Below are positions 1,664 to 13,521 of a DNA stretch of 13,710 nucleotides, one piece after another; the stretch's first letter is position 1; each line of letters opens with the position of its first letter. Both the position numbers and the translations under genes were made by a program. The notes under the pieces are model-generated. The model had not been told where the DNA came from, ran no database searches, and saw only the letters and a list, made by a program, of their open reading frames with translations. The DNA is taken from positions 1 through 13,710 of the IMG/VR virus record IMGVR_UViG_2693429700_000003. One strand, written 5' to 3'. The stretch is from a virus (lineage: Duplodnaviria > Heunggongvirae > Uroviricota > Caudoviricetes).

Positions 1664-2036
1664 TTTTAATTGTTGTTTTGAAATAATCACTGCTTTCACA
1701 TTTGAGTGATTTCATGGCAATCCAAATGCGGGCCTCTGTGCCTGCATTTGGTTCCAGTTGCTGTAGACGTTTTGCGTCTTCCAAAAGTAAGGCGATAATG
1801 TGTTTCAGCTTCTCATCATTTGCTTGATTCTTGTTTTCAGGCGAATTCTGTCCGCCGAATAGGCGCTTCTCTTCATACAGACCTATAAAGGCACGACGCA
1901 CGTTACCGGATATAGTATCGATGGTTTCTTTTTCTACGGTACTCAGGTCAAGAGTCGCCAGTTGAGAGCGAACCACATTCGATGCCATTTCCTGGAATGG
2001 TACTGGTAAATCTTTAAATTCCATCGTCAACCTCAT
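1623..2036 (-). CDS. Hypothetical protein, 137 aa (133 aa if started at ATG 2024 with GAGG upstream); unknown function
   Basis: Track ORF; start ATG overlaps the stop of the upstream ydfA-like gene (ATGA at 2038-2034); AT-rich relative to flanks. Confidence 0.65.
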   Translation of the reverse strand: MRLTMEFKDLPVPFQEMASNVVRSQLATLDLSTVEKETIDTISGNVRRAFIGLYEEKRLFGGQNSPENKNQANDEKLKHIIALLLEDAKRLQQLEPNAGTEARIWIAMKSLKCESSDYFKTTIKTTQLSGELLKKLP

Positions 2037-2188
2037 CAGTCAGTGTTTCTGGTTAACCAGCGACGCGCGCCAGCTTCAGTTTTAAACGTTTTGCTTCTGG
2101 TATACGCCATCGCGGTAAACGTGCCGTCCTGGTTGGGAAACACGCCGTACACCAGAGATTCGTTGTTGCCAAGATCGATAGTATCCAT
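2036..2188 (-). CDS. Small protein, 50 aa, YdfA-like first gene of the repressor-controlled leftward operon
   Basis: Internal ATG (2188) of track ORF 2036..2281 with GAGG 5 nt upstream; the track's longer start at 2281 lies inside the predicted promoter/operator and has no RBS; product MDTIDLGNNESLVYGVFPNQDGTFTAMAYTRSKTFKTEAGARRWLTRNTD. Confidence 0.55.
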   Translation of the reverse strand: MDTIDLGNNESLVYGVFPNQDGTFTAMAYTRSKTFKTEAGARRWLTRNTD

Positions 2189-2265
2189 GCTGACCTCATT
2201 TCCCCTTAACGCCAGGGTAGCGGAACTGTTTGCTGAGAACACCGTGCGGTGTCTTGATGGGTGGT

Positions 2266-2320
2266 AATTTAGTTTTCTCATGAAGGTTGGTCAAGCGTTT
2301 TTAATGAGAAAACTCAATAT
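2266..2320 (-). promoter_or_regulatory. Leftward early promoter with repressor operators (dicB-operon promoter equivalent): -35 TTGACC (plus 2289-2294 complement), 17-bp spacer, -10 TAAATT (2266-2271 complement)
   Basis: 14-bp TGAGAAAACTCAAT at 2305-2318 is identical to the operator at 2839-2852 in the repressor/cro intergenic region; inverted partial copy at 2271-2283. Confidence 0.5.
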
Positions 2321-2379
2321 TTAATGCAAAATAAAGCCAATACATTGAAATGTAAGGCTTTAAAATTTGTGAAGGGGGG

Positions 2380-2787
2380 TTACTGATGTTTGTTACGTTT
2401 GCGAGCTTCTAGTAGCTCGGTGAATAGGCGATTAAAATTCTCAACGCGGGCACGGAGTTCGCTGATTTGTGCTTGCTGCTCTGATTTTGGAAGTGCGCGA
2501 TACAATCGCAACATCTCCAACTCATCTTCCGATAAGTCTAAGGCGCTGTTGAGTGCAACTGGTGGATCTGGTGTTTTATCCTCGTCACCAAACAGTATCC
2601 AAGTTGGTGAACATTGCAATACCTCAGCCAGGCGATGCAAATTTTGCCCACGCGGGGCTGTATGGTCGCTTTCCCATAGTGAAATTGATGAGCCAGATAC
2701 GCCAGCGGCTTTGCTTAAATCGTTTTGACTTAAACCAACCTGTTTGCGTCTTTCTCTAATTCGTTGACCTAAAGTTTTCTCGTTCAT
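2380..2787 (-). CDS. dicA: DicA-type HTH (Xre/cI-like) prophage repressor, 135 aa
   Basis: Track ORF; N-terminal HTH (LSQNDLSKAAGVSGSSISLWE); motif VLQCSPTWILFGDEDK matches my recollection of E. coli DicA; divergent from a cro-like gene with operators between them. Confidence 0.8.
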   Translation of the reverse strand: MNEKTLGQRIRERRKQVGLSQNDLSKAAGVSGSSISLWESDHTAPRGQNLHRLAEVLQCSPTWILFGDEDKTPDPPVALNSALDLSEDELEMLRLYRALPKSEQQAQISELRARVENFNRLFTELLEARKRNKHQ

Positions 2788-2864
2788 ATTTAGATATCTT
2801 AATAACCCTTGACTTGAGATTCCTTGAGTGATTACTATTGAGAAAACTCAATTTTGGAGGGGTG
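2788..2864. promoter_or_regulatory. Divergent immunity-switch region: rightward promoter (-35 TTGACT 2809-2814, -10 ATTACT/TACTAT 2831-2838) and operator half-sites TTGAG/CTCAA, including the palindrome TTGAGAAAACTCAA (2839-2852)
   Basis: Direct inspection; the palindrome sits between the -10 and the cro RBS GGAGG (2855-2859). Confidence 0.55.
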
Positions 2865-3092
2865 ATGTTTAAATCAGACGTAATTAATTTTTATGGGACG
2901 AAAGCCAAAGTAGCGAAAGCTGCTGGTGTTGATCCATCTGCTGTTTCTCAATGGGGGGAGCTGGTTCCTGAAGGTCGCGCGATGCGCCTGCAAGAGGCAT
3001 CCGGCGGGGAACTTCAGTACGACCCCAAAGTTTATGACGAATATCGTAAGGCAAAGCGGGCGGGGCGGTTGAACAATGAAAATCACCCCTGA
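2865..3092 (+). CDS. dicC: Cro-like HTH regulator, 75 aa (DicC-type)
   Basis: ATG 2865 with GGAGG 5 nt upstream (track ORF 2838..3092 begins at an upstream TTG); divergent from the repressor; C-terminal PEGRAMRLQEASGGELQYDP fits the DicC/Cro family as I recall it. Confidence 0.7.
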   Translation: MFKSDVINFYGTKAKVAKAAGVDPSAVSQWGELVPEGRAMRLQEASGGELQYDPKVYDEYRKAKRAGRLNNENHP

Positions 3093-3627
3093 ACAGGTTT
3101 GTGAGGCTCTGGATGCCTGGGTGTGCCGACCAGGAATGACACAGGAGCAGGCGACGATATTAATCACGGAAGCATTCTGGGCTCTGAAAGAACGCCCGAA
3201 CATCGATGTTCAACGCGTCACGTTTAATGATGGCGAGGTTGATCAACGGGCGCTGGGCGTTAACCGGGTGAAGATATTCGAACGCTGGAAAGCTATCGAC
3301 ACCAGGGATAAGCGGAAAAAATTCACGGCGCTGATTCCGGCAATTATGGAGGCTATCCGAATTAGTGATTTCAGGTTGTATCGTGAGATCAGTGATGGAA
3401 AAAGCATTACGTACATGATCGCCGGATTAAACAAAGAATATGGCGATGTGGTGGAGTCCGGGCTGCTTTTTGCGGATCCAGCTGTTGTGGAACGTGAGAC
3501 TGACGAGCTTATAGAAAAAGCTATTGCTTTCAAGCATGCGTATCGTCAGCAATATCAATATTACTTTGCAGATAAACAAATGTCTGCCAGGGGTTCGTAT
3601 GAGTATCGATGCACTACGATGGGCTAA
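3076..3627 (+). CDS. Hypothetical early protein, 183 aa, in the CII position (possibly a YdaT-like CII analogue; function unverified)
   Basis: Track ORF; start overlaps the cro-like stop and end overlaps the O-like start, so it is in the rightward early operon. Confidence 0.6.
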   Translation: MKITPEQVCEALDAWVCRPGMTQEQATILITEAFWALKERPNIDVQRVTFNDGEVDQRALGVNRVKIFERWKAIDTRDKRKKFTALIPAIMEAIRISDFRLYREISDGKSITYMIAGLNKEYGDVVESGLLFADPAVVERETDELIEKAIAFKHAYRQQYQYYFADKQMSARGSYEYRCTTMG

Positions 3628-4639
3628 AAAGGTGAAAACCGGCAGTTCATCCAGTAAGTCTGTATTGACCTGGCTTGCTGATATGTGCGGTGCCGATTTG
3701 TGTGCATACCCGTCTGTATCTGCACTGGCAGAAGTAACGGAACTAAACAAAAAGACTGTGCAGGACAGCTTACGACACCTGATGGAGATTGGGTTAATTG
3801 TTGATACCGGTGAGAGAAAAGGCAGAACAAAGCAAATTGTGGTGTACCGACTTATCGGTGTAGAAGAAAGTGTTGCCGAGCCTGAATACACCCAAAAACG
3901 GGAGTCTTTAAAGGTGGGTAAAATTGGCGCTGTTAATAAAAACAGTACCGAAAATGGTTATGTTTCAGCACAAAACAGACCCAAAAACGGAACTCTTAGC
4001 TGCATGGAAAATAACCAAAGACACCCAAATTTTCCATCAAAGACACCCAAAAACGGATCACGGAACCCAAAGGAACCCAAAGATCTAAACCCCACACATA
4101 ACGCACGCGAGAGTGCTCCGACCAGTGAGCAGGAAGTTTTGTCGTTACAGGCAGCACCCCTTGTATTCCTGTATGGCCTGAGCGAACCCATCGGAAAATT
4201 TCCGATGACCGATAGCTGGTATCCGTCACGGGATTTTCGACGACGGGCTGCGTTGTGGGGGATGGCTTTGCCGGAGACAGAATTTACACCTGCTGAACTT
4301 GCCGCCTTCCGGGACTACTGGGCAGCGGAGGGGAAAGTGTTTACGCAGATTCAGTGGGAGCAGAAATTCGCCCGTCACGTAAATCACGTCAGGGCGCAGG
4401 TTAAACCAGTCAGCAAGGGGGTAAACCATGCAGCAGCACCAGGTGGCACCGCATCACGGGCAGTTCAGGAAATTCGGGCAGCACGTGAGCAGTGGGAACG
4501 TGAAAACGGATTTATCAGCGACGGAAACGGTCTGGAAGCTGTGGGAACTCATGGGGGAGGTTTATTCGAACCGCTGGACCCAGAAGAACGGGGCCGCACC
4601 TTCGAAGCTCTGGATTGCACAGATTGGCGCGATGACTGA
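3599..4639 (+). CDS. Replication initiator (lambda O-like role): N-terminal DNA-binding region, iteron-bearing linker, DnaT-like C-terminal segment; 346 aa as an ORF, but the true C-terminus may be earlier
   Basis: ATG 3599 (internal start of track ORF 3524..4639); N-terminal MSIDALRWAKKV...SVLTWLADMCG; origin-like iterons inside the coding region; followed by a P-like gene; the last ~70 codons are low-complexity and overlap the P-like frame. Confidence 0.65.
   Translation: MSIDALRWAKKVKTGSSSSKSVLTWLADMCGADLCAYPSVSALAEVTELNKKTVQDSLRHLMEIGLIVDTGERKGRTKQIVVYRLIGVEESVAEPEYTQKRESLKVGKIGAVNKNSTENGYVSAQNRPKNGTLSCMENNQRHPNFPSKTPKNGSRNPKEPKDLNPTHNARESAPTSEQEVLSLQAAPLVFLYGLSEPIGKFPMTDSWYPSRDFRRRAALWGMALPETEFTPAELAAFRDYWAAEGKVFTQIQWEQKFARHVNHVRAQVKPVSKGVNHAAAPGGTASRAVQEIRAAREQWERENGFISDGNGLEAVGTHGGGLFEPLDPEERGRTFEALDCTDWRDD
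3888..4085. repeat. Iteron cluster / putative phage origin of replication inside the initiator gene
   Basis: Repeated (A)GACACCCAAAAACGG-type units at 3888-3902, 3977-3990, 4018-4030 (variant), 4041-4056, plus two short AACCCAAAG copies at 4064-4082; in lambdoid phages the ori lies within the O linker region. Confidence 0.6.
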
Positions 4640-5093
4640 GCAGCAAATCCGACAGGTCTGCCGCCAGTGCATGGACCGCTGCCGGGCGGGTGAAACATGG
4701 CCTCCGGACCTGGCTGAGTTTGTGGCACTGATTTCGGAAAGCGGAGCCAATCCATTCGGTCTGACGGTGGATGCTGTGATGGAGGAGTACCGCCGCTGGC
4801 GCAATGAGTCCTGGCGATATGACGGAAGTGATAAGTACCCGTGGTCTCAGCCTGTGCTGTATCACATTTGCCTCGAGATGCGTTCAAAGGGGATTGAGCG
4901 CCAGATGACCGAAGGGGAATTAAAACGGCTTGCAGAACGGCAGCTGGCGAAATGGGCAAAGCATGTTAGTAACGGCCTGAGCGTTCCGCCAGTCCGGCGA
5001 CAACTGGCGGCACCCAAACGCCCGTCGGGGCCAACGCCAATTGAGTTGCTGAAACAGGAATATGAACGCCGGAAAGCGGCTGGGTTTGTTTGA
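4428..5093 (+). CDS. Lambda P-like replication protein (helicase loader), 221 aa; alternative starts at 4551 or 4632
   Basis: Track ORF; GGGGG 7 nt upstream of ATG 4428; by-eye similarity to lambda P (YPWSQPVLYHICLEMR vs YPWKSNAHYWLVTNLY; ELKRLAERQL vs AELRRKAADEL); no Walker A motif, so not DnaC-like. Confidence 0.65.
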   Translation: MQQHQVAPHHGQFRKFGQHVSSGNVKTDLSATETVWKLWELMGEVYSNRWTQKNGAAPSKLWIAQIGAMTEQQIRQVCRQCMDRCRAGETWPPDLAEFVALISESGANPFGLTVDAVMEEYRRWRNESWRYDGSDKYPWSQPVLYHICLEMRSKGIERQMTEGELKRLAERQLAKWAKHVSNGLSVPPVRRQLAAPKRPSGPTPIELLKQEYERRKAAGFV

Positions 5094-8289: not shown

Positions 8290-8448
8290 GGTAAAAACGG
8301 TTTGCGGGAAAAGGAGAGTTAAGTAGAATTGCTGCGGGTGCTTGAGGCTATCTGTCTCAGGCATGAACACCAAAAGGCAGATAGAGAAAAGCCCCAGTTA
8401 ACATTACGCGTCCGGCAAGACGCTTAACATTAATCTGAGGCCATATCT

Positions 8449-8655
8449 ATGCTCTACACACGTAGGTTAGCCTCTTACGGACCGAAAGGTCAAGGAGAAG
8501 CAGGCTATGAAGCAGCAAAAGGCGATGTTAATCGCCCTGATCGTCATCTGTTTAACCGTCATAGTGACGGCACTGGTAACGAGGAAAGACCTCTGCGAGG
8601 TACGAATCCGAACCGGCCAGACGGAGGTCGCTGTCTTCACAGCTTACGAACCTGA
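8449..8655 (+). CDS. mok-like overlapping reading frame (translation-coupling frame of a hok locus), 68 aa
   Basis: Track ORF; starts 58 nt upstream of hok and overlaps it out of frame, as mok does in hok/sok loci. Confidence 0.5.
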   Translation: MLYTRRLASYGPKGQGEAGYEAAKGDVNRPDRHLFNRHSDGTGNEERPLRGTNPNRPDGGRCLHSLRT

Positions 8656-8878: not shown

Positions 8879-9130
8879 ATGATGAACATCGAAGAACTGC
8901 GTAAAATTTTTTGTGAAGATGGCCTCTATGCTGTGTGCGTTGAAAATGGAAATATTGTTAGTCATTACCGCATTGTGTGTTTGCAAAAAAATGGGGCTGC
9001 GTTAATTAATTTTGTGGATGCCCGAGTGACGGACGGATTTATCTTGCGCGACGGTGAGTTTGTCACTTCATTACAGGTATTGAAAGAGATCGGAATAAAA
9101 GCTGGCTTTTCTGCTTTTTCAGAAGAATAA
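8879..9130 (+). CDS. Hypothetical protein, 83 aa (same size and position as rem next to hokD in Qin; sequence identity unverified)
   Basis: Track ORF; GGAAGGA upstream. Confidence 0.6.
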   Translation: MMNIEELRKIFCEDGLYAVCVENGNIVSHYRIVCLQKNGAALINFVDARVTDGFILRDGEFVTSLQVLKEIGIKAGFSAFSEE

Positions 9131-10535: not shown

Positions 10536-10901
10536 ATGACTGAACGCATAGAATTTGTTTTGCCTTACCCGCCAACGGTGAACACTTACTGGCGACGTCG
10601 TGGCAGCACATATTTTGTATCAAAAGCCGGTGAGCGTTATCGCCGTGATGTGGCGCTTATTGTTCGCCAGCAGCGGCTGAAATTAAACCTGTCCGGAAGG
10701 CTGGCGATAAAGATTATTGCAGAGCCACCGGATAAGCGTCGTCGTGACCTGGACAATATCCTGAAAGCACCACTGGATGCGCTGACGCATGCCGGACTTC
10801 TCATAGACGACGAGCAGTTTGATGAAATCAATATTGTGCGCGGTCAGCTCGTTCCTGGGGGGCGGCTGGGCGTGAAGATTTACAAAATTGAGAGTGAGTG
10901 A
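10536..10901 (+). CDS. rusA: RusA Holliday-junction resolvase, 121 aa
   Basis: Track ORF; motifs PYPPTVNTYWRR and DKRRRDLDNILKAPLDALTHAG match my recollection of E. coli RusA; start overlaps the upstream stop. Confidence 0.85.
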   Translation: MTERIEFVLPYPPTVNTYWRRRGSTYFVSKAGERYRRDVALIVRQQRLKLNLSGRLAIKIIAEPPDKRRRDLDNILKAPLDALTHAGLLIDDEQFDEINIVRGQLVPGGRLGVKIYKIESE

Positions 10902-11452
10902 TCGTAAATATGATATATCCGGAAATTACAGGCAAAAGCGGCGAGCATTTACGTCTAAAAACGCTGGAAGCCGTCTGGATCCAGGGGAAATTACGGATGT
11001 GGGGGCGTTGGTCGTATATAGGTGGTGGCAAACCAGGAAATATGTTCAATCAGTTGCTGACATCCAAAAAACTGACAAAAACCGCGATCAATGAAGCCCT
11101 GCGTAGAATCAGGGAGTCAGGGATTGATAAACCAGAGCTGGAAGCATTCTTGCGAGAGATGATCGCTGGCAGACAGAAGAGCTGGTTGTCTCACTGTACT
11201 GATGCAGAGGCGTTACGCATTGATGGGGTGATAAGTAAAGCGCTTGCACGTTATCCTGGATTGATTGATATCCTGCGGCAAAGGTACGAAGGGCGGGGGA
11301 TGAGTAAACGCAAAATGGCTGAATTGTTGAATGAGGTTCACCCTGAGTGGTGCTATGCAACATGCCGCAATCGTATAGATATGTGGCTGAGAATAGCTGA
11401 GTTTATTCTGTATCCACTGATGCGAGATGCATTTTCTTTTACTGACGCTTAG
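10898..11452 (+). CDS. Late-gene antiterminator Q, 184 aa (alternative ATG at 10910)
   Basis: Track ORF (GTG start overlapping the rusA stop); lies immediately upstream of a promoter-plus-terminator region, the classic Q/PR'/tR' layout; family assignment is by position and size. Confidence 0.6.
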   Translation: MIVNMIYPEITGKSGEHLRLKTLEAVWIQGKLRMWGRWSYIGGGKPGNMFNQLLTSKKLTKTAINEALRRIRESGIDKPELEAFLREMIAGRQKSWLSHCTDAEALRIDGVISKALARYPGLIDILRQRYEGRGMSKRKMAELLNEVHPEWCYATCRNRIDMWLRIAEFILYPLMRDAFSFTDA

Positions 11453-12112: not shown

Positions 12113-13162
12113 ATGGCTAATACTGTAAAAATATCCAGTTGTGAGTTAATCAACGCTGATTGCCTGGAATTTATCCAGACCTTACCGGAAAATTCTGTCG
12201 ATCTGATAGTCACAGACCCGCCATACTTTAAAGTGAAGCCCGAGGGCTGGGATAACCAGTGGGAGGGCGACGATGATTACCTGAAATGGCTGGACCAGTG
12301 TCTGGCGCAGTTCTGGCGGGTACTGAAGCCTACCGGAAGTCTTTACCTGTTCTGTGGTCATCGCCTGGCATCTGACACCGAAATCATGATGCGTGAGCGC
12401 TTTAATGTGCTGAACCACATTATCTGGGCGAAGCCGTCCGGACGCTGGAACGGGTGCAATAAGGAAAGTCTGCGGGCGTATTTTCCGGCAACAGAGCGCA
12501 TTCTGTTTGCAGAACATTATCAGGGACCGTATCGCCCGAAAGATGATGGCTATGTGGAGCAGGGGCGCGAGCTAAAACAGCACGTCATGGCCCCGCTGAT
12601 TTCTTACTTTCGTGATGCGCGTAAATCACTGGGAATAACGTCAAAACAGATAGCGGAAGCCACCGGAAAGAAAAACATGGCTTCGCACTGGTTTGGTGCC
12701 AGTCAGTGGCAGTTACCGAACGAGGGTGATTACAATAAATTGCAGGCGTTGTTTGCGCGTGTTGCGGCAGAAAAACATCAGCGCGGGGAACTGGAAAAGC
12801 CACACCACCAGCTGGTCAGCACATACAGTGAGCTGAACCGGCAGTATACGGAACTGCTGAGTGAATATAAAAATTTGCGGCGGTATTTCGGTGTGACGGC
12901 GCAGGTTCCGTACACCGATGTCTGGACGCATAAACCGGTGCAGTACTATCCAGGGAAACATCCGTGCGAAAAACCGGCAGAAATGCTGCAGCAGATAATC
13001 AACGCGAGCAGTCGTCCGGGAGACCTGGTTGCAGATTTTTTTATGGGTTCAGGTTCAACGGTAAAAGCGGCGATGGCACTGGGGCGTTGTGCGATTGGTG
13101 TTGAGCTGGAGACCGGACGTTTTGAACAGACAGTCAGGGAAGTTCAGGATTTAATCGTTTGA
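12113..13162 (+). CDS. DNA methyltransferase, beta class (N6-adenine or N4-cytosine), 349 aa; no partner restriction endonuclease in the window
   Basis: Track ORF; motif IV TDPPYF near the N-terminus and motif I FFMGSGST near the C-terminus (beta-class order). Confidence 0.8.
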   Translation: MANTVKISSCELINADCLEFIQTLPENSVDLIVTDPPYFKVKPEGWDNQWEGDDDYLKWLDQCLAQFWRVLKPTGSLYLFCGHRLASDTEIMMRERFNVLNHIIWAKPSGRWNGCNKESLRAYFPATERILFAEHYQGPYRPKDDGYVEQGRELKQHVMAPLISYFRDARKSLGITSKQIAEATGKKNMASHWFGASQWQLPNEGDYNKLQALFARVAAEKHQRGELEKPHHQLVSTYSELNRQYTELLSEYKNLRRYFGVTAQVPYTDVWTHKPVQYYPGKHPCEKPAEMLQQIINASSRPGDLVADFFMGSGSTVKAAMALGRCAIGVELETGRFEQTVREVQDLIV

Positions 13163-13211: not shown

Positions 13212-13287
13212 GGCCCTTTAGCTCAGTGGTGAGAGCGAGCGACTCATAATCGCCAGGTCGCTGGTTCAAATCCAGCAAGGGCCACCA
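13212..13287 (+). tRNA. tRNA with CAU anticodon, ileX/ileZ-like (tRNA-Ile2 type read after lysidine modification; Met not excluded)
   Basis: Manual cloverleaf: acceptor GGCCCTT/AAGGGCC, D-arm TAGCTCAGTGGTGAGAGC, anticodon loop CTCATAA, T-loop GGTTCAAATCC, 3' ACCA; close to my recollection of E. coli ileX. Confidence 0.8.
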
Positions 13288-13288
13288 A

Positions 13289-13365
13289 CCGCCACTAGCT
13301 CATCAGGAAAGAGCGTCAACCCTTTAAGTTGAGTGTGCGAGGTTCGAGTCCCCGGTGGCGGTCCA
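13289..13365 (+). tRNA. tRNA of uncertain identity: anticodon loop CCUUUAA (UUU at positions 34-36, Lys-like, but with non-canonical C33)
   Basis: Manual cloverleaf: acceptor CCGCCAC/GTGGCGG (perfect 7 bp), D-stem GCTC/GAGC, anticodon stem TCAAC/GTTGA, T-arm with TTCGAGT loop and one mismatch, 3' TCCA; starts 1 nt after the preceding tRNA. Confidence 0.55.
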
Positions 13366-13367
13366 GT

Positions 13368-13443
<76 letters not shown>

Positions 13444-13446
13444 TAT

Positions 13447-13521
<75 letters not shown>

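Follow-up and report, generated by a model that had tools for sequence, protein, structure and literature searches.

The window (the whole stretch of viral DNA that was analysed, 13,710 bp) carries a repressor gene at 2380-2787 on the minus strand, which encodes a 135-aa HTH_3 protein and lies between two clusters of a palindromic site. Divergent from it on the plus strand is a cro-like gene (2865-3092, 75 aa; PF14549, E 1e-17), a DicC homologue of the P22_Cro family, and 77 bp separate the two start codons. The cro-like protein shares 71% identity with K-12 DicC, and the differing residues cluster in the HTH. Downstream of the rightward promoter come this gene, a YdaT/cII-like gene, genes for replication and finally Q, and the leftward promoter lies upstream of ydfA, DicF, dicB and ydfD.

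The first gene of the leftward operon is a ydfA homologue (2036-2188, minus strand; 50 aa, DUF1391). A longer ORF of 81 aa that extends to 2281 was rejected as ydfA: its start falls within the proximal left operator (O_L1, see below), the DUF1391 Pfam match is limited to residues 33-79 and relatives are annotated at 153 nt. The same operon contains, also on the minus strand, the DicF small RNA (1001-1052; Rfam RF00039, 76.7 bits against a gathering score of 48), the gene for the cell-division inhibitor DicB (638-826; Pfam PF05358, E 4e-38) and, following dicB, a ydfD-like gene (450-641; DUF1482, PF07358, E 4e-25). The leftward operon does not begin with a recognisable N-type gene. A Rem homologue (8879-9130, plus strand; 83 aa), 93% identical to K-12 Rem, is a candidate antirepressor and presumably acts on the repressor encoded at 2380-2787.

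The repressor is 56% identical to K-12 DicA over 128 residues (E 2e-51), and its residues 1-72 match the DNA-binding domain of P22 C2 (PDB 1adr, 2r1j and 3jxb; E 2e-15). Its Pfam matches are to HTH families only, with no Peptidase_S24, and the protein ends at residue 135; since an S24 domain is lacking, RecA-mediated cleavage is not expected. The structure model is poor (single sequence, pLDDT 62) and past the HTH consists of helices only, which makes dimerisation through the C-terminal helices no more than a suggestion. The repressor ATG has no Shine-Dalgarno sequence upstream.

Predicted operators at the two early promoters

A preliminary description of this DNA reported an identical 14-bp site on either side of the repressor gene, and this is borne out: TGAGAAAACTCAAT occurs exactly at 2305-2318 and 2839-2852, both on the plus strand. 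The inverted partial copy reported at 2271-2283 is also real, being identical at 13 of 14 bases (TGAGAAAACTAAAT), but its position is better given as 2267-2280, minus strand. At up to one mismatch TGAGAAAACTCAAT has three matches in the 13,710-bp window, and 0 of 200 dinucleotide-preserving shuffles gave any (mean 0.00). The operator motif is common to the promoter in the repressor/cro intergenic region and the promoter downstream of the repressor gene. Conservation around the sites was measured as a footprint over 90 same-type loci, with 27 and 52 distinct intergenic sequences, and is given below as the percentage of mismatching cells.

The rightward promoter (PR or dicCp-like; 2809-2838, plus strand) reads TTGACT-18-TACTAT and aligns with K-12 dicCp (TTGACT-17-TATCTT). 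Its predicted OR1-like operator, O_C (2837-2852, ATTGAGAAAACTCAAT), is a perfect 16-bp palindrome, ATTGAG-AAAA-CTCAAT, in the same position as Oc of K-12 Qin. It overlaps the expected start point of the cro-like gene and is followed by GGAGG (2856-2860) and the cro-like ATG (2865). The preliminary description placed the site between the -10 and the ribosome-binding site; as a 16-mer it overlaps the last 2 bp of the -10. Mismatches affect 0.9% of cells in the 13-bp core of O_C versus 10% in the adjoining leader and -10 (27 distinct intergenic sequences). Between the -35 and the -10 is an O_M-like element (2813-2828) with TTGAG half-sites at 2814-2818 and 2824-2828, which had been listed as additional half-sites. 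They are present, but they form a direct and not an inverted repeat and are weakly conserved: 5.9% of cells mismatch at 2824-2828, and the 2.2% at 2814-2818 is confounded with the -35. They are not kept in Buttiauxella, and the element is at best a degenerate operator (9/16).

Another palindrome, absent from the preliminary description, lies at 2788-2803. This OR3-like candidate, O_A (ATTTAGATATCTTAAT), is a near-palindrome that reads ATTAAG-ATAT-CTAAAT on the minus strand and is identical to O_C at 12 of 16 bases. It abuts the repressor ATG, and the only -10-like hexamers of the repressor gene are overlapped by it. No other intergenic stretch is as well conserved as O_A: 0.2% of its cells mismatch, and 90 of 91 loci carry it exactly. 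Other alleles each have their own palindrome at this position, such as 'Oa' of K-12 (TTAGC-ATTA-GCTAA). The operator consensus in the scan that covered O_A and a third left site was derived from the sites themselves. The centres of O_C, the O_M-like element and O_A are spaced 24 and 25 bp apart, and of the three only O_C and O_A are well conserved. A possible fifth site in repressor codons 2-5 (2773-2784, AACGAGAAAACT) was rejected, as it is not kept in Buttiauxella and can be accounted for by the N-E-K-T codons.

The leftward promoter (PL or dicBp-like; 2266-2294, minus strand) reads TTGACC-17-TAAATT from 2294 to 2266, with an expected start near 2258-2259 (CATCAA). The -35 TTGACC is common to K-12 dicBp and lies at an equal distance from the operators. 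The preliminary description had the left copy of the 14-bp site overlapping this promoter. The promoter-like hexamers are indeed present, but the exact copy belongs to a distal predicted operator, O_L2 (2303-2318, AATGAGAAAACTCAAT), that lies 8 bp upstream of the -35. The overlapping site is the inverted copy, in the proximal predicted operator O_L1 (2267-2282, minus strand, CATGAGAAAACTAAAT), which spans five of the six bases of the -10 and 11 bp of the promoter spacer and whose right half-site, CTAAAT, is also part of the -10. The O_L2 core has 1.5% mismatching cells versus 19% in the 8 bp that separate it from the -35, and at the corresponding position K-12, Buttiauxella and the viral locus L217 all carry a site, each of its own type. 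In the O_L1 core the figure is 0.6%, whereas it is 39% in the 6 bp on the side facing the -35 and 16% on the side facing the start point. The two left sites lie 36 bp apart, one on either side of the -35 of the leftward promoter, and four alleles have a spacing of 35-36 bp between the distal and the proximal site. A spacing of 36 bp is about 3.4 helical turns, which simple side-by-side cooperativity would not predict. No third left operator was found around 2238 and 2292, and TGAGAACAC at 2234-2242 was rejected as one because it lies within the leader common to all alleles and is therefore not allele-specific.

A terminator-like hairpin of the intrinsic type with UUUAUUUUG (2323-2362, minus strand) lies 3' of the repressor stop codon. 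It has an MFE of -12.3 kcal/mol (z = -4.0; 0 of 200 shuffles equally good) and 1.4% mismatching cells, and it sets repressor transcription apart from the leftward promoter. The leftward leader was also considered as a put- or nut-like element. It gave no Rfam match and, in RNAalifold on a MAFFT alignment, no consensus; it has no second copy on the rightward side and no sequence resemblance to the PL-nun interval of HK022 (putL region). Its hairpins are short (4-7 bp), whereas the HK022 putL type is an RNA of about 70 nt with two stems just downstream of PL. An antiterminator RNA of the HK022 put type was rejected on these grounds.

Conservation and co-variation of the sites

Among the same-type loci, the operator cores have 0.6-1.5% mismatching cells and O_A 0.2%, compared with 7-39% in the spacers. 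Compared with the spacers that separate them, the sites are 5 to 60 times less variable among loci with the same repressor type. The repeats were sought in related immunity regions, and all three sites are present within 2 mismatches in 91 of 91 loci having the VSGSSISLWES-type recognition helix. The exact 14-mer occurs in 120 IMG/VR stretches, mostly as chance matches in unrelated environmental viruses, so that the loci were sorted by number of sites and presence of the repressor. The 11 stretches with three sites all encode this DicA-type repressor, and 103 of the 120 have a lone single match and no DicA-like gene. One apparent two-site locus (L127) was rejected as a chance pair within a coding region. 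The immunity type is found in 797 of 5,426 complete E. coli genomes (about 15%), and no mention of the operator sequence was found in the searchable literature.

DicA homologues fall into six specificity classes, each with its own palindrome at the corresponding positions, and the palindrome changes jointly with the recognition helices of both the repressor and Cro. Homologues in Buttiauxella (75-76% aa identity) and L217 (73% aa identity, with another first leftward gene) have TGAGAAAACTCAA at all three positions; their repressor helix is likewise preserved, as VS(G/D)S(S/T)ISLWES, and so is their Cro helix, as (V/I)DPSAVSQW. Elsewhere the repressor helix ISHVSVSQWER pairs with the palindrome TTGTTAGTCATAACTAACAA, V(A/S)HVTISQWE with TTGTTAGATTTnnCTAACAA, (R/K)SSVSVFKWE with TAACTTTTGTTA and ISHATISLWES with TTGTTGAGTTTATTTAACAA. 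The promoter hexamers TTGACC and TTGACT are unchanged across alleles while the operators differ. A profile search of viral contigs with a diverse DicA alignment revealed no new specificity classes; it gave the same near-identical relatives as the single-protein search.

Likeness to known prophage switches

The closest parallel in layout is the DicA-DicC-dicBp region of the cryptic prophage Qin, which has reportedly also been described by Bejar, Bouche and Bouche in 1988. K-12 Qin has the same order of dicB, dicF, ydfA and repressor followed by a divergent cro-like gene, and the repressor is a homologous 135-aa protein. The geometry is also the same, with one site over the cro-side start, two left sites bracketing the -35 and likewise a palindrome adjoining the repressor ATG, and the promoter hexamers are alike. 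However, the K-12 operator TTGTTAGTCATAACTAACAA is unrelated to ATTGAGAAAACTCAAT, so the K-12 specificity is not found here, and the recognition helix is VSGSSISLWES in place of the ISHVSVSQWER of K-12 DicA. Because both operators and helices differ, this allele and K-12 Qin should be heteroimmune. In the ydfA-dicF interval, a 137-aa protein stands here in place of K-12 ydfB and ydfC.

For K-12 Qin, control of both sides has been established by experiment. DicA binds Oc and represses dicC, and binding is lost when single bases of the operator are mutated (Yun et al. 2012, PMC3441716). Om, which corresponds to the O_M-like element, and Oa showed no DicA binding in the in-vivo assay (PMC3441716), and work based on RegulonDB gives the dicB site as low-evidence and of unknown location (PMC7567609). 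Rem relieves DicA repression of dicBp 165-fold (PMC10448788). Because direct DicA binding in K-12 is seen only at Oc, occupancy of the left sites and O_A by the repressor, as opposed to the Cro-like protein, would be expected by analogy.

Two phages carry the same immunity allele, mEp460_ev081 (LR597641) and HannyBb (PP925841), with 91% nucleotide identity over 2191-2864. Their operator cores are all identical, whereas the inter-operator spacers and parts of the early-left region differ. mEp460 is a functional temperate phage in the literature (PMC10448788), and the module therefore serves a functional, temperate phage. Literature on mEp460, as far as searchable, notes the similarity to DicA and Rem and does not describe operators.

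The region also resembles those of P22, lambda and 434 in having divergent repressor and cro genes, operator clusters at the rightward and leftward early promoters, and dyad-symmetric operators with a 4-bp A/T centre like those of P22 c2/Cro. However, P22 C2 and lambda CI have a C-terminal S24 (LexA-like) peptidase/oligomerisation domain that is absent here, and P22 C2 is 216 aa long (as cited in PMC10448788) compared with 135 aa for this repressor. Set against the two regular operator triplets of P22 and lambda, the arrangement here appears to differ, with two clear sites in the left cluster and a strong, a related and a degenerate one in the right. As in the Gifsy prophages of Salmonella, the repressor is short and without a cleavage site, and a small antirepressor is expected to inactivate it (Lemire et al. 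2011, as cited in PMC10448788); this likeness is drawn from the Rem homologue and the K-12 data.

Interpretation of the immunity region

Taken from sequence and from analogy with K-12, the region is very probably a lambdoid (mEp460/Qin-type) prophage immunity region, a heteroimmune allele of the DicA-DicC switch in which the repressor would silence both early promoters. The layout is already known from K-12 Qin and occurs here with a different operator sequence. The gene identities, the K-12-like positions of the sites, their conservation relative to the flanks and their co-variation with the recognition helices support the two-operator arrangement proposed earlier by analogy with OL/OR, in which one repressor would serve both early operons. 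The repressor would bind the 16-bp operators of the ATTGAG-AAAA-CTCAAT type as a dimer through its P22-C2-like helix-turn-helix, and occupied operators would exclude RNA polymerase, as the K-12 experiments suggest, so that a single repressor would keep both early operons off, toxic division inhibitors included. The Cro-like protein probably recognises operators of this family too. O_A would sit at the repressor's own weak promoter and ATG and is likely the point at which repressor synthesis is shut off, like lambda OR3, by the Cro-like protein or by excess repressor. Because the repressor lacks an autocleavage domain, derepression would be expected to come from the Rem-type antirepressor (8879-9130) and not from RecA.

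On a different reading, the Cro-like (DicC-type) protein would be the main or sole ligand of the palindromes; the repressor would read O_C alone, and the dicB operon would not be directly repressed through the left sites. In K-12, what directly shows binding to both flanks of dicA is ChIP-seq peaks of DicC (PMC11430063), DicA having been shown at Oc alone (PMC3441716), and changes in the operator are tracked by the Cro-like helix no less closely than by the repressor helix. Such a division of labour is nevertheless improbable. It is deletion of dicA and not of dicC that derepresses dicBp 22-fold in K-12 (Ragunathan et al. 2023, PMC10448788). The left sites also match O_C at 13-14 of 14 bases, so that a protein that binds O_C should bind them as well. 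Moreover, repressor and Cro share their operators in lambda, P22 and 434.

The repeats could also be conserved as promoter architecture or as recombination junctions of lambdoid modules without binding a protein. Some of the conservation is indeed promoter-derived, since O_L1 and the -10 have bases in common and the TTGAG half-site at 2814-2818 runs into the -35, and homology between heteroimmune alleles ends close to the operators. Yet O_L2 and most of O_C lie outside the hexamers and exceed their flanks 5- to 20-fold in conservation, and the sites are dyad-symmetric with a 4-bp centre like P22-type operators. Their sequence follows the recognition helices while the hexamers stay constant, and junction scars would not persist at three positions in Buttiauxella and L217, where the flanks are otherwise unalignable; an origin of this kind is therefore highly improbable. 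That the main ligand is a host-encoded regulator and not the prophage repressor is hardly credible, as alleles within one host species differ in operator and track the prophage HTH helices, and the clustered site occurs only beside this DicA-type repressor.

Some further features can be proposed, although as a whole they are rather doubtful. The clusters, 534 bp apart, may loop through the repressor in the manner of lambda OL/OR, and O_A together with a leaderless repressor mRNA may give lambda-like autoregulation without the lambda C-terminal domain. One Rem may also switch on several heteroimmune dicB operons together, since Rem is 93% identical between this prophage and K-12 Qin and the repressors are 56% identical.

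The understanding of how such switches work is unchanged by this locus. It does provide a concrete predicted operator sequence for an immunity type carried by about 15% of complete E. coli genomes and by the temperate phages mEp460_ev081 and HannyBb. The DicA homologues, with their matched operators and helices, form a natural series for the evolution of HTH specificity, and could aid in predicting which resident prophages silence or cross-react with each other's dicB/DicF operons for division inhibitors.

Gene content of the immunity region

Gene identities mark the window as the early region of a Qin/mEp460-type lambdoid prophage. The repressor gene (2380-2787, minus strand) encodes a 135-aa protein that is matched by helix-turn-helix (HTH) families only and is 56% identical to DicA of K-12 Qin. 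Its residues 1-72 align with the DNA-binding domain of P22 C2 (E 2e-15), and it has no cleavage domain. The structure predicted from the single sequence is poor (pLDDT 62); it suggests only an HTH domain (residues 1-66) joined by a flexible linker to two C-terminal helices. Directly 3' of the repressor stop lies a hairpin with a U-run (UUUAUUUUG; 2323-2362, minus strand; z = -4.0), a strong and conserved terminator-like structure of the intrinsic type. On the plus strand follow a Cro-like gene (2865-3092; P22_Cro family, 71% identical to DicC), a YdaT/cII-like gene (3076-3627; PF06254 (YdaT), PHROG 'CII-like activator') and DnaT-like and lambda P-like replication genes (3599-5093).

The leftward genes, all on the minus strand, are a ydfA homologue (2036-2188; DUF1391), a gene for an unknown 137-aa protein (1623-2036), the DicF RNA (1001-1052; Rfam, 76.7 bits), dicB (638-826; Pfam DicB) and a ydfD-like gene (450-641; DUF1482), so that the term "dicB-type operon" in the preliminary description was apt. 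The stop of ydfA overlaps the start of the 137-aa gene (ATGA, 2034-2037), which suggests translational coupling. An 81-aa mechanical ORF (2036-2281, minus strand) was rejected as ydfA: it begins at an ATG that falls inside a candidate operator (O_L1, below), ahead of where transcription is predicted to start. The gene itself is the 50-aa ydfA with its start at 2188.

Heteroimmune alleles share a conserved leader on the leftward (ydfA/dicF/dicB) transcript (about 2189-2258, minus strand). Species that have diverged retain, in this order, the sequence CATCAA, one hairpin, the motif GTTC(C/T)G and another hairpin, and the four elements persist even in a viral locus with a different first gene (L217). 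The first stem shows compensatory changes (ACACC/GGTGT, AATCACT/AGTGATT, AATCACC/GGTGATT, CGGC/GCCG); the second occurs as CCC/GGG, GCC/GGC, ATCTG/CAGAT, GTTCG/CGAAC and GCCG/CGGC. The leader matched no Rfam family, folded as a single sequence no better than its shuffles, did not resemble HK022 putL and was not found a second time on the rightward side. One possibility is a nut-like element, or another element of processive antitermination or stability, required for reading through the DicF terminator.

Palindromes at the two promoters

A consensus scan of 1900-3100 found exactly two promoter-like sites, both named in the preliminary description: TTGACC-17-TAAATT leftward (2294 to 2266, minus strand) and TTGACT-18-TACTAT rightward (2809-2838, plus strand). 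The 14-bp site reported on either side of the repressor gene, TGAGAAAACTCAAT, is indeed exact at 2305-2318 and 2839-2852 (plus strand), and the reported inverted partial copy is a 13/14 match (TGAGAAAACTAAAT) whose position is corrected to 2267-2280 on the minus strand. No other match with at most one mismatch occurs in the whole 13,710-bp window, and 0 of 200 dinucleotide-preserving shuffles gave any at that threshold. At 16 bp the right-hand copy (O_C, 2837-2852) is a perfect palindrome, ATTGAG-AAAA-CTCAAT; the left copies read AATGAGAAAACTCAAT (distal site O_L2, 2303-2318) and CATGAGAAAACTAAAT (proximal site O_L1, 2282 to 2267, minus strand). O_C starts within the rightward -10 and spans the expected start point, and is followed by GGAGG (2856-2860) and the Cro-like ATG (2865). 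The overlap with the leftward promoter had been assigned to the exact left copy; it belongs instead to the inverted copy, O_L1, which covers five of the six bases of the -10, while O_L2 stands upstream of the -35, separated from it by 8 bp. The terminator-like hairpin stands between the repressor gene and O_L2.

A fourth palindrome, O_A (ATTTAGATATCTTAAT, 2788-2803; ATTAAG-ATAT-CTAAAT on the repressor strand), was absent from the earlier list. It adjoins the repressor ATG; 12 of its 16 positions agree with O_C, and its half-site CTAAAT recurs in O_L1. Because O_A overlaps the sole -10-like hexamers available to the repressor gene (TAAGAT, 2801 to 2796) and no Shine-Dalgarno sequence precedes the ATG, we infer that the repressor mRNA may be leaderless, like that from lambda PRM, and that O_A may act like OR3. 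O_A also resembles the synthetic P22 operator ATTTAAGATATCTTAAAT minus one A per half, a likeness that would fit the P22-C2-like DNA-binding domain of the repressor. The extra TTGAG half-sites are present (2814-2818 and 2824-2828), but they form a direct repeat, the 16-mer that they define matches the operator at only 9 of 16 positions, and the second varies (5.9% mismatching cells), with Buttiauxella not retaining it. Centre to centre, this element is 24 bp from O_C and 25 bp from O_A, a spacing reminiscent of lambda OR. The K-12 counterpart of the half-site element, Om, is not bound by DicA in vivo (PMC3441716). Of the three right-hand sites, the outer two alone, O_C and O_A, are convincing.

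Conservation and specificity of the sites

Counted at ≥90% nucleotide identity over 2191-2864, this immunity allele is present in 797 of 5,426 complete E. coli genomes, and also in phages mEp460_ev081 and HannyBb. Ninety loci with this repressor type yielded 27 different intergenic sequences on the cro side and 52 on the ydfA side. Mismatching cells amount to 0.9% in the O_C core, 1.5% in O_L2 and 0.6% in O_L1; the values are 10% in the cro-like leader, 16% between the leftward -10 and start point, 19% between O_L2 and the -35 and 39% between the -35 and O_L1. No intergenic stretch is as conserved as O_A (0.2%), which is exact in 90/91 loci. The three repeated sites are retained with at most two mismatches in all 91 loci with this recognition helix, 68 of which have the exact pattern of the window. 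The region also turns up in metagenome-assembled genomes that bear the names 'Bacillota bacterium' and 'Veillonella parvula' (repressor 96% identical, ydfA leader matching K-12), most likely because prophage DNA from E. coli contaminated these bins.

Co-variation was followed in DicA homologues from other species and in L217. Two Buttiauxella species (75-76% aa identity) and also L217 (73%) keep the repressor helix VS(G/D)S(S/T)ISLWES; they keep the Cro helix (V/I)DPSAVSQW too, and TGAGAAAACTCAA stands at all three positions although the remaining intergenic DNA is unalignable. Different repressor helices pair with different palindromes at the same positions: ISHVSVSQWER with TTGTTAGTCATAACTAACAA, V(A/S)HVTISQWE with TTGTTAGATTTnnCTAACAA, (R/K)SSVSVFKWE with TAACTTTTGTTA and ISHATISLWES with TTGTTGAGTTTATTTAACAA. 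These other alleles also have a palindrome of their own at the place of O_A, each like its main operator; that of K-12 is Oa, TTAGC-ATTA-GCTAA. The exact 14-mer occurs in 120 IMG/VR stretches; 103 are isolated single matches without a DicA-like gene, the chance expectation for a collection of that size, and all 11 three-site stretches carry this repressor.

Proposed two-sided control by the repressor

The architecture is textbook, following the OL/OR logic of lambdoid phages and the DicA/DicC operators at dicCp and dicBp of K-12 Qin. There, Oc (TTGTTAGTCATAACTAACAA) lies directly 3' of the dicCp -10, and two related copies bracket the dicBp -35. Both systems have the hexamers TTGACC leftward and TTGACT rightward, and the two left sites are 36 bp apart (start to start) in the window and L217 and 35 bp in K-12 and Buttiauxella. 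Alignments show homology in the ydfA leader and coding regions, whereas the operators are unrelated in sequence at the same positions. Two-sided control is experimentally established for K-12: DicA binds Oc, single-base changes abolish binding, dicC is repressed and dicA itself activated (PMC3441716); dicBp is derepressed 22-fold by dicA deletion and 165-fold by the antirepressor Rem (PMC10448788); and DicC ChIP-seq gives peaks on either side of dicA (PMC11430063).

The sites might instead be mainly targets of the Cro-like protein, with the repressor acting on O_C alone, but this is made less likely by the left sites being identical to O_C and by the phenotype of the K-12 dicA deletion. Were the repeats promoter parts or recombination junctions, their dyad symmetry, their conservation outside the hexamers and their co-variation with the helices would be left unexplained, and a host factor binding the sites would not account for sequences specific to each allele. 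The preliminary interpretation, one repressor shutting off both operons, is supported.

The analysis shows the gene identities, the site positions relative to promoter-like hexamers, the conservation of the sites and their co-variation with HTH helices; the mechanism proposed on this basis takes its steps from the homologues in K-12 and from what is generally known of P22- and 434-type repressors. A repressor dimer would bind each 16-bp site, blocking the rightward promoter at O_C and, at O_L1 aided by O_L2, the leftward promoter, which would keep DicF, DicB and the other early-left genes silent. The Cro-like protein would read the same sites and switch the repressor gene off, probably via O_A. 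The hairpin at 2323-2362 would stop repressor transcription from entering the leftward operon. Only the operator sequence belonging to this specificity class may be new; it was not found in the searchable literature, and the passages searched in papers that mention mEp460 DicA and Rem contain no description of the mEp460 operators.

Further rightward, a Q-type antiterminator homologue (10898-11452; DUF1133/antitermQ) is followed by a DNA methyltransferase gene (12113-13162) and four tRNA genes (13212-13518), all on the plus strand, a layout like that found ahead of the toxin genes in Stx-converting phages; the window stops before anything more is visible. A sok antisense RNA (Rfam, 109.5 bits) and an overlapping small ORF that may be its hok partner (8449-8655; PHROG match, function unknown) occupy 8336-8655 (plus strand), just upstream of rem, where K-12 Qin has hokD.

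Since the repressor has no cleavage domain and a Rem homologue is encoded at 8879-9130 (plus strand), induction would be expected to proceed via an antirepressor and not RecA. This Rem is 93% identical to that of K-12, whereas the repressors are only 56% identical, which raises the question of whether one Rem serves several heteroimmune DicA alleles.
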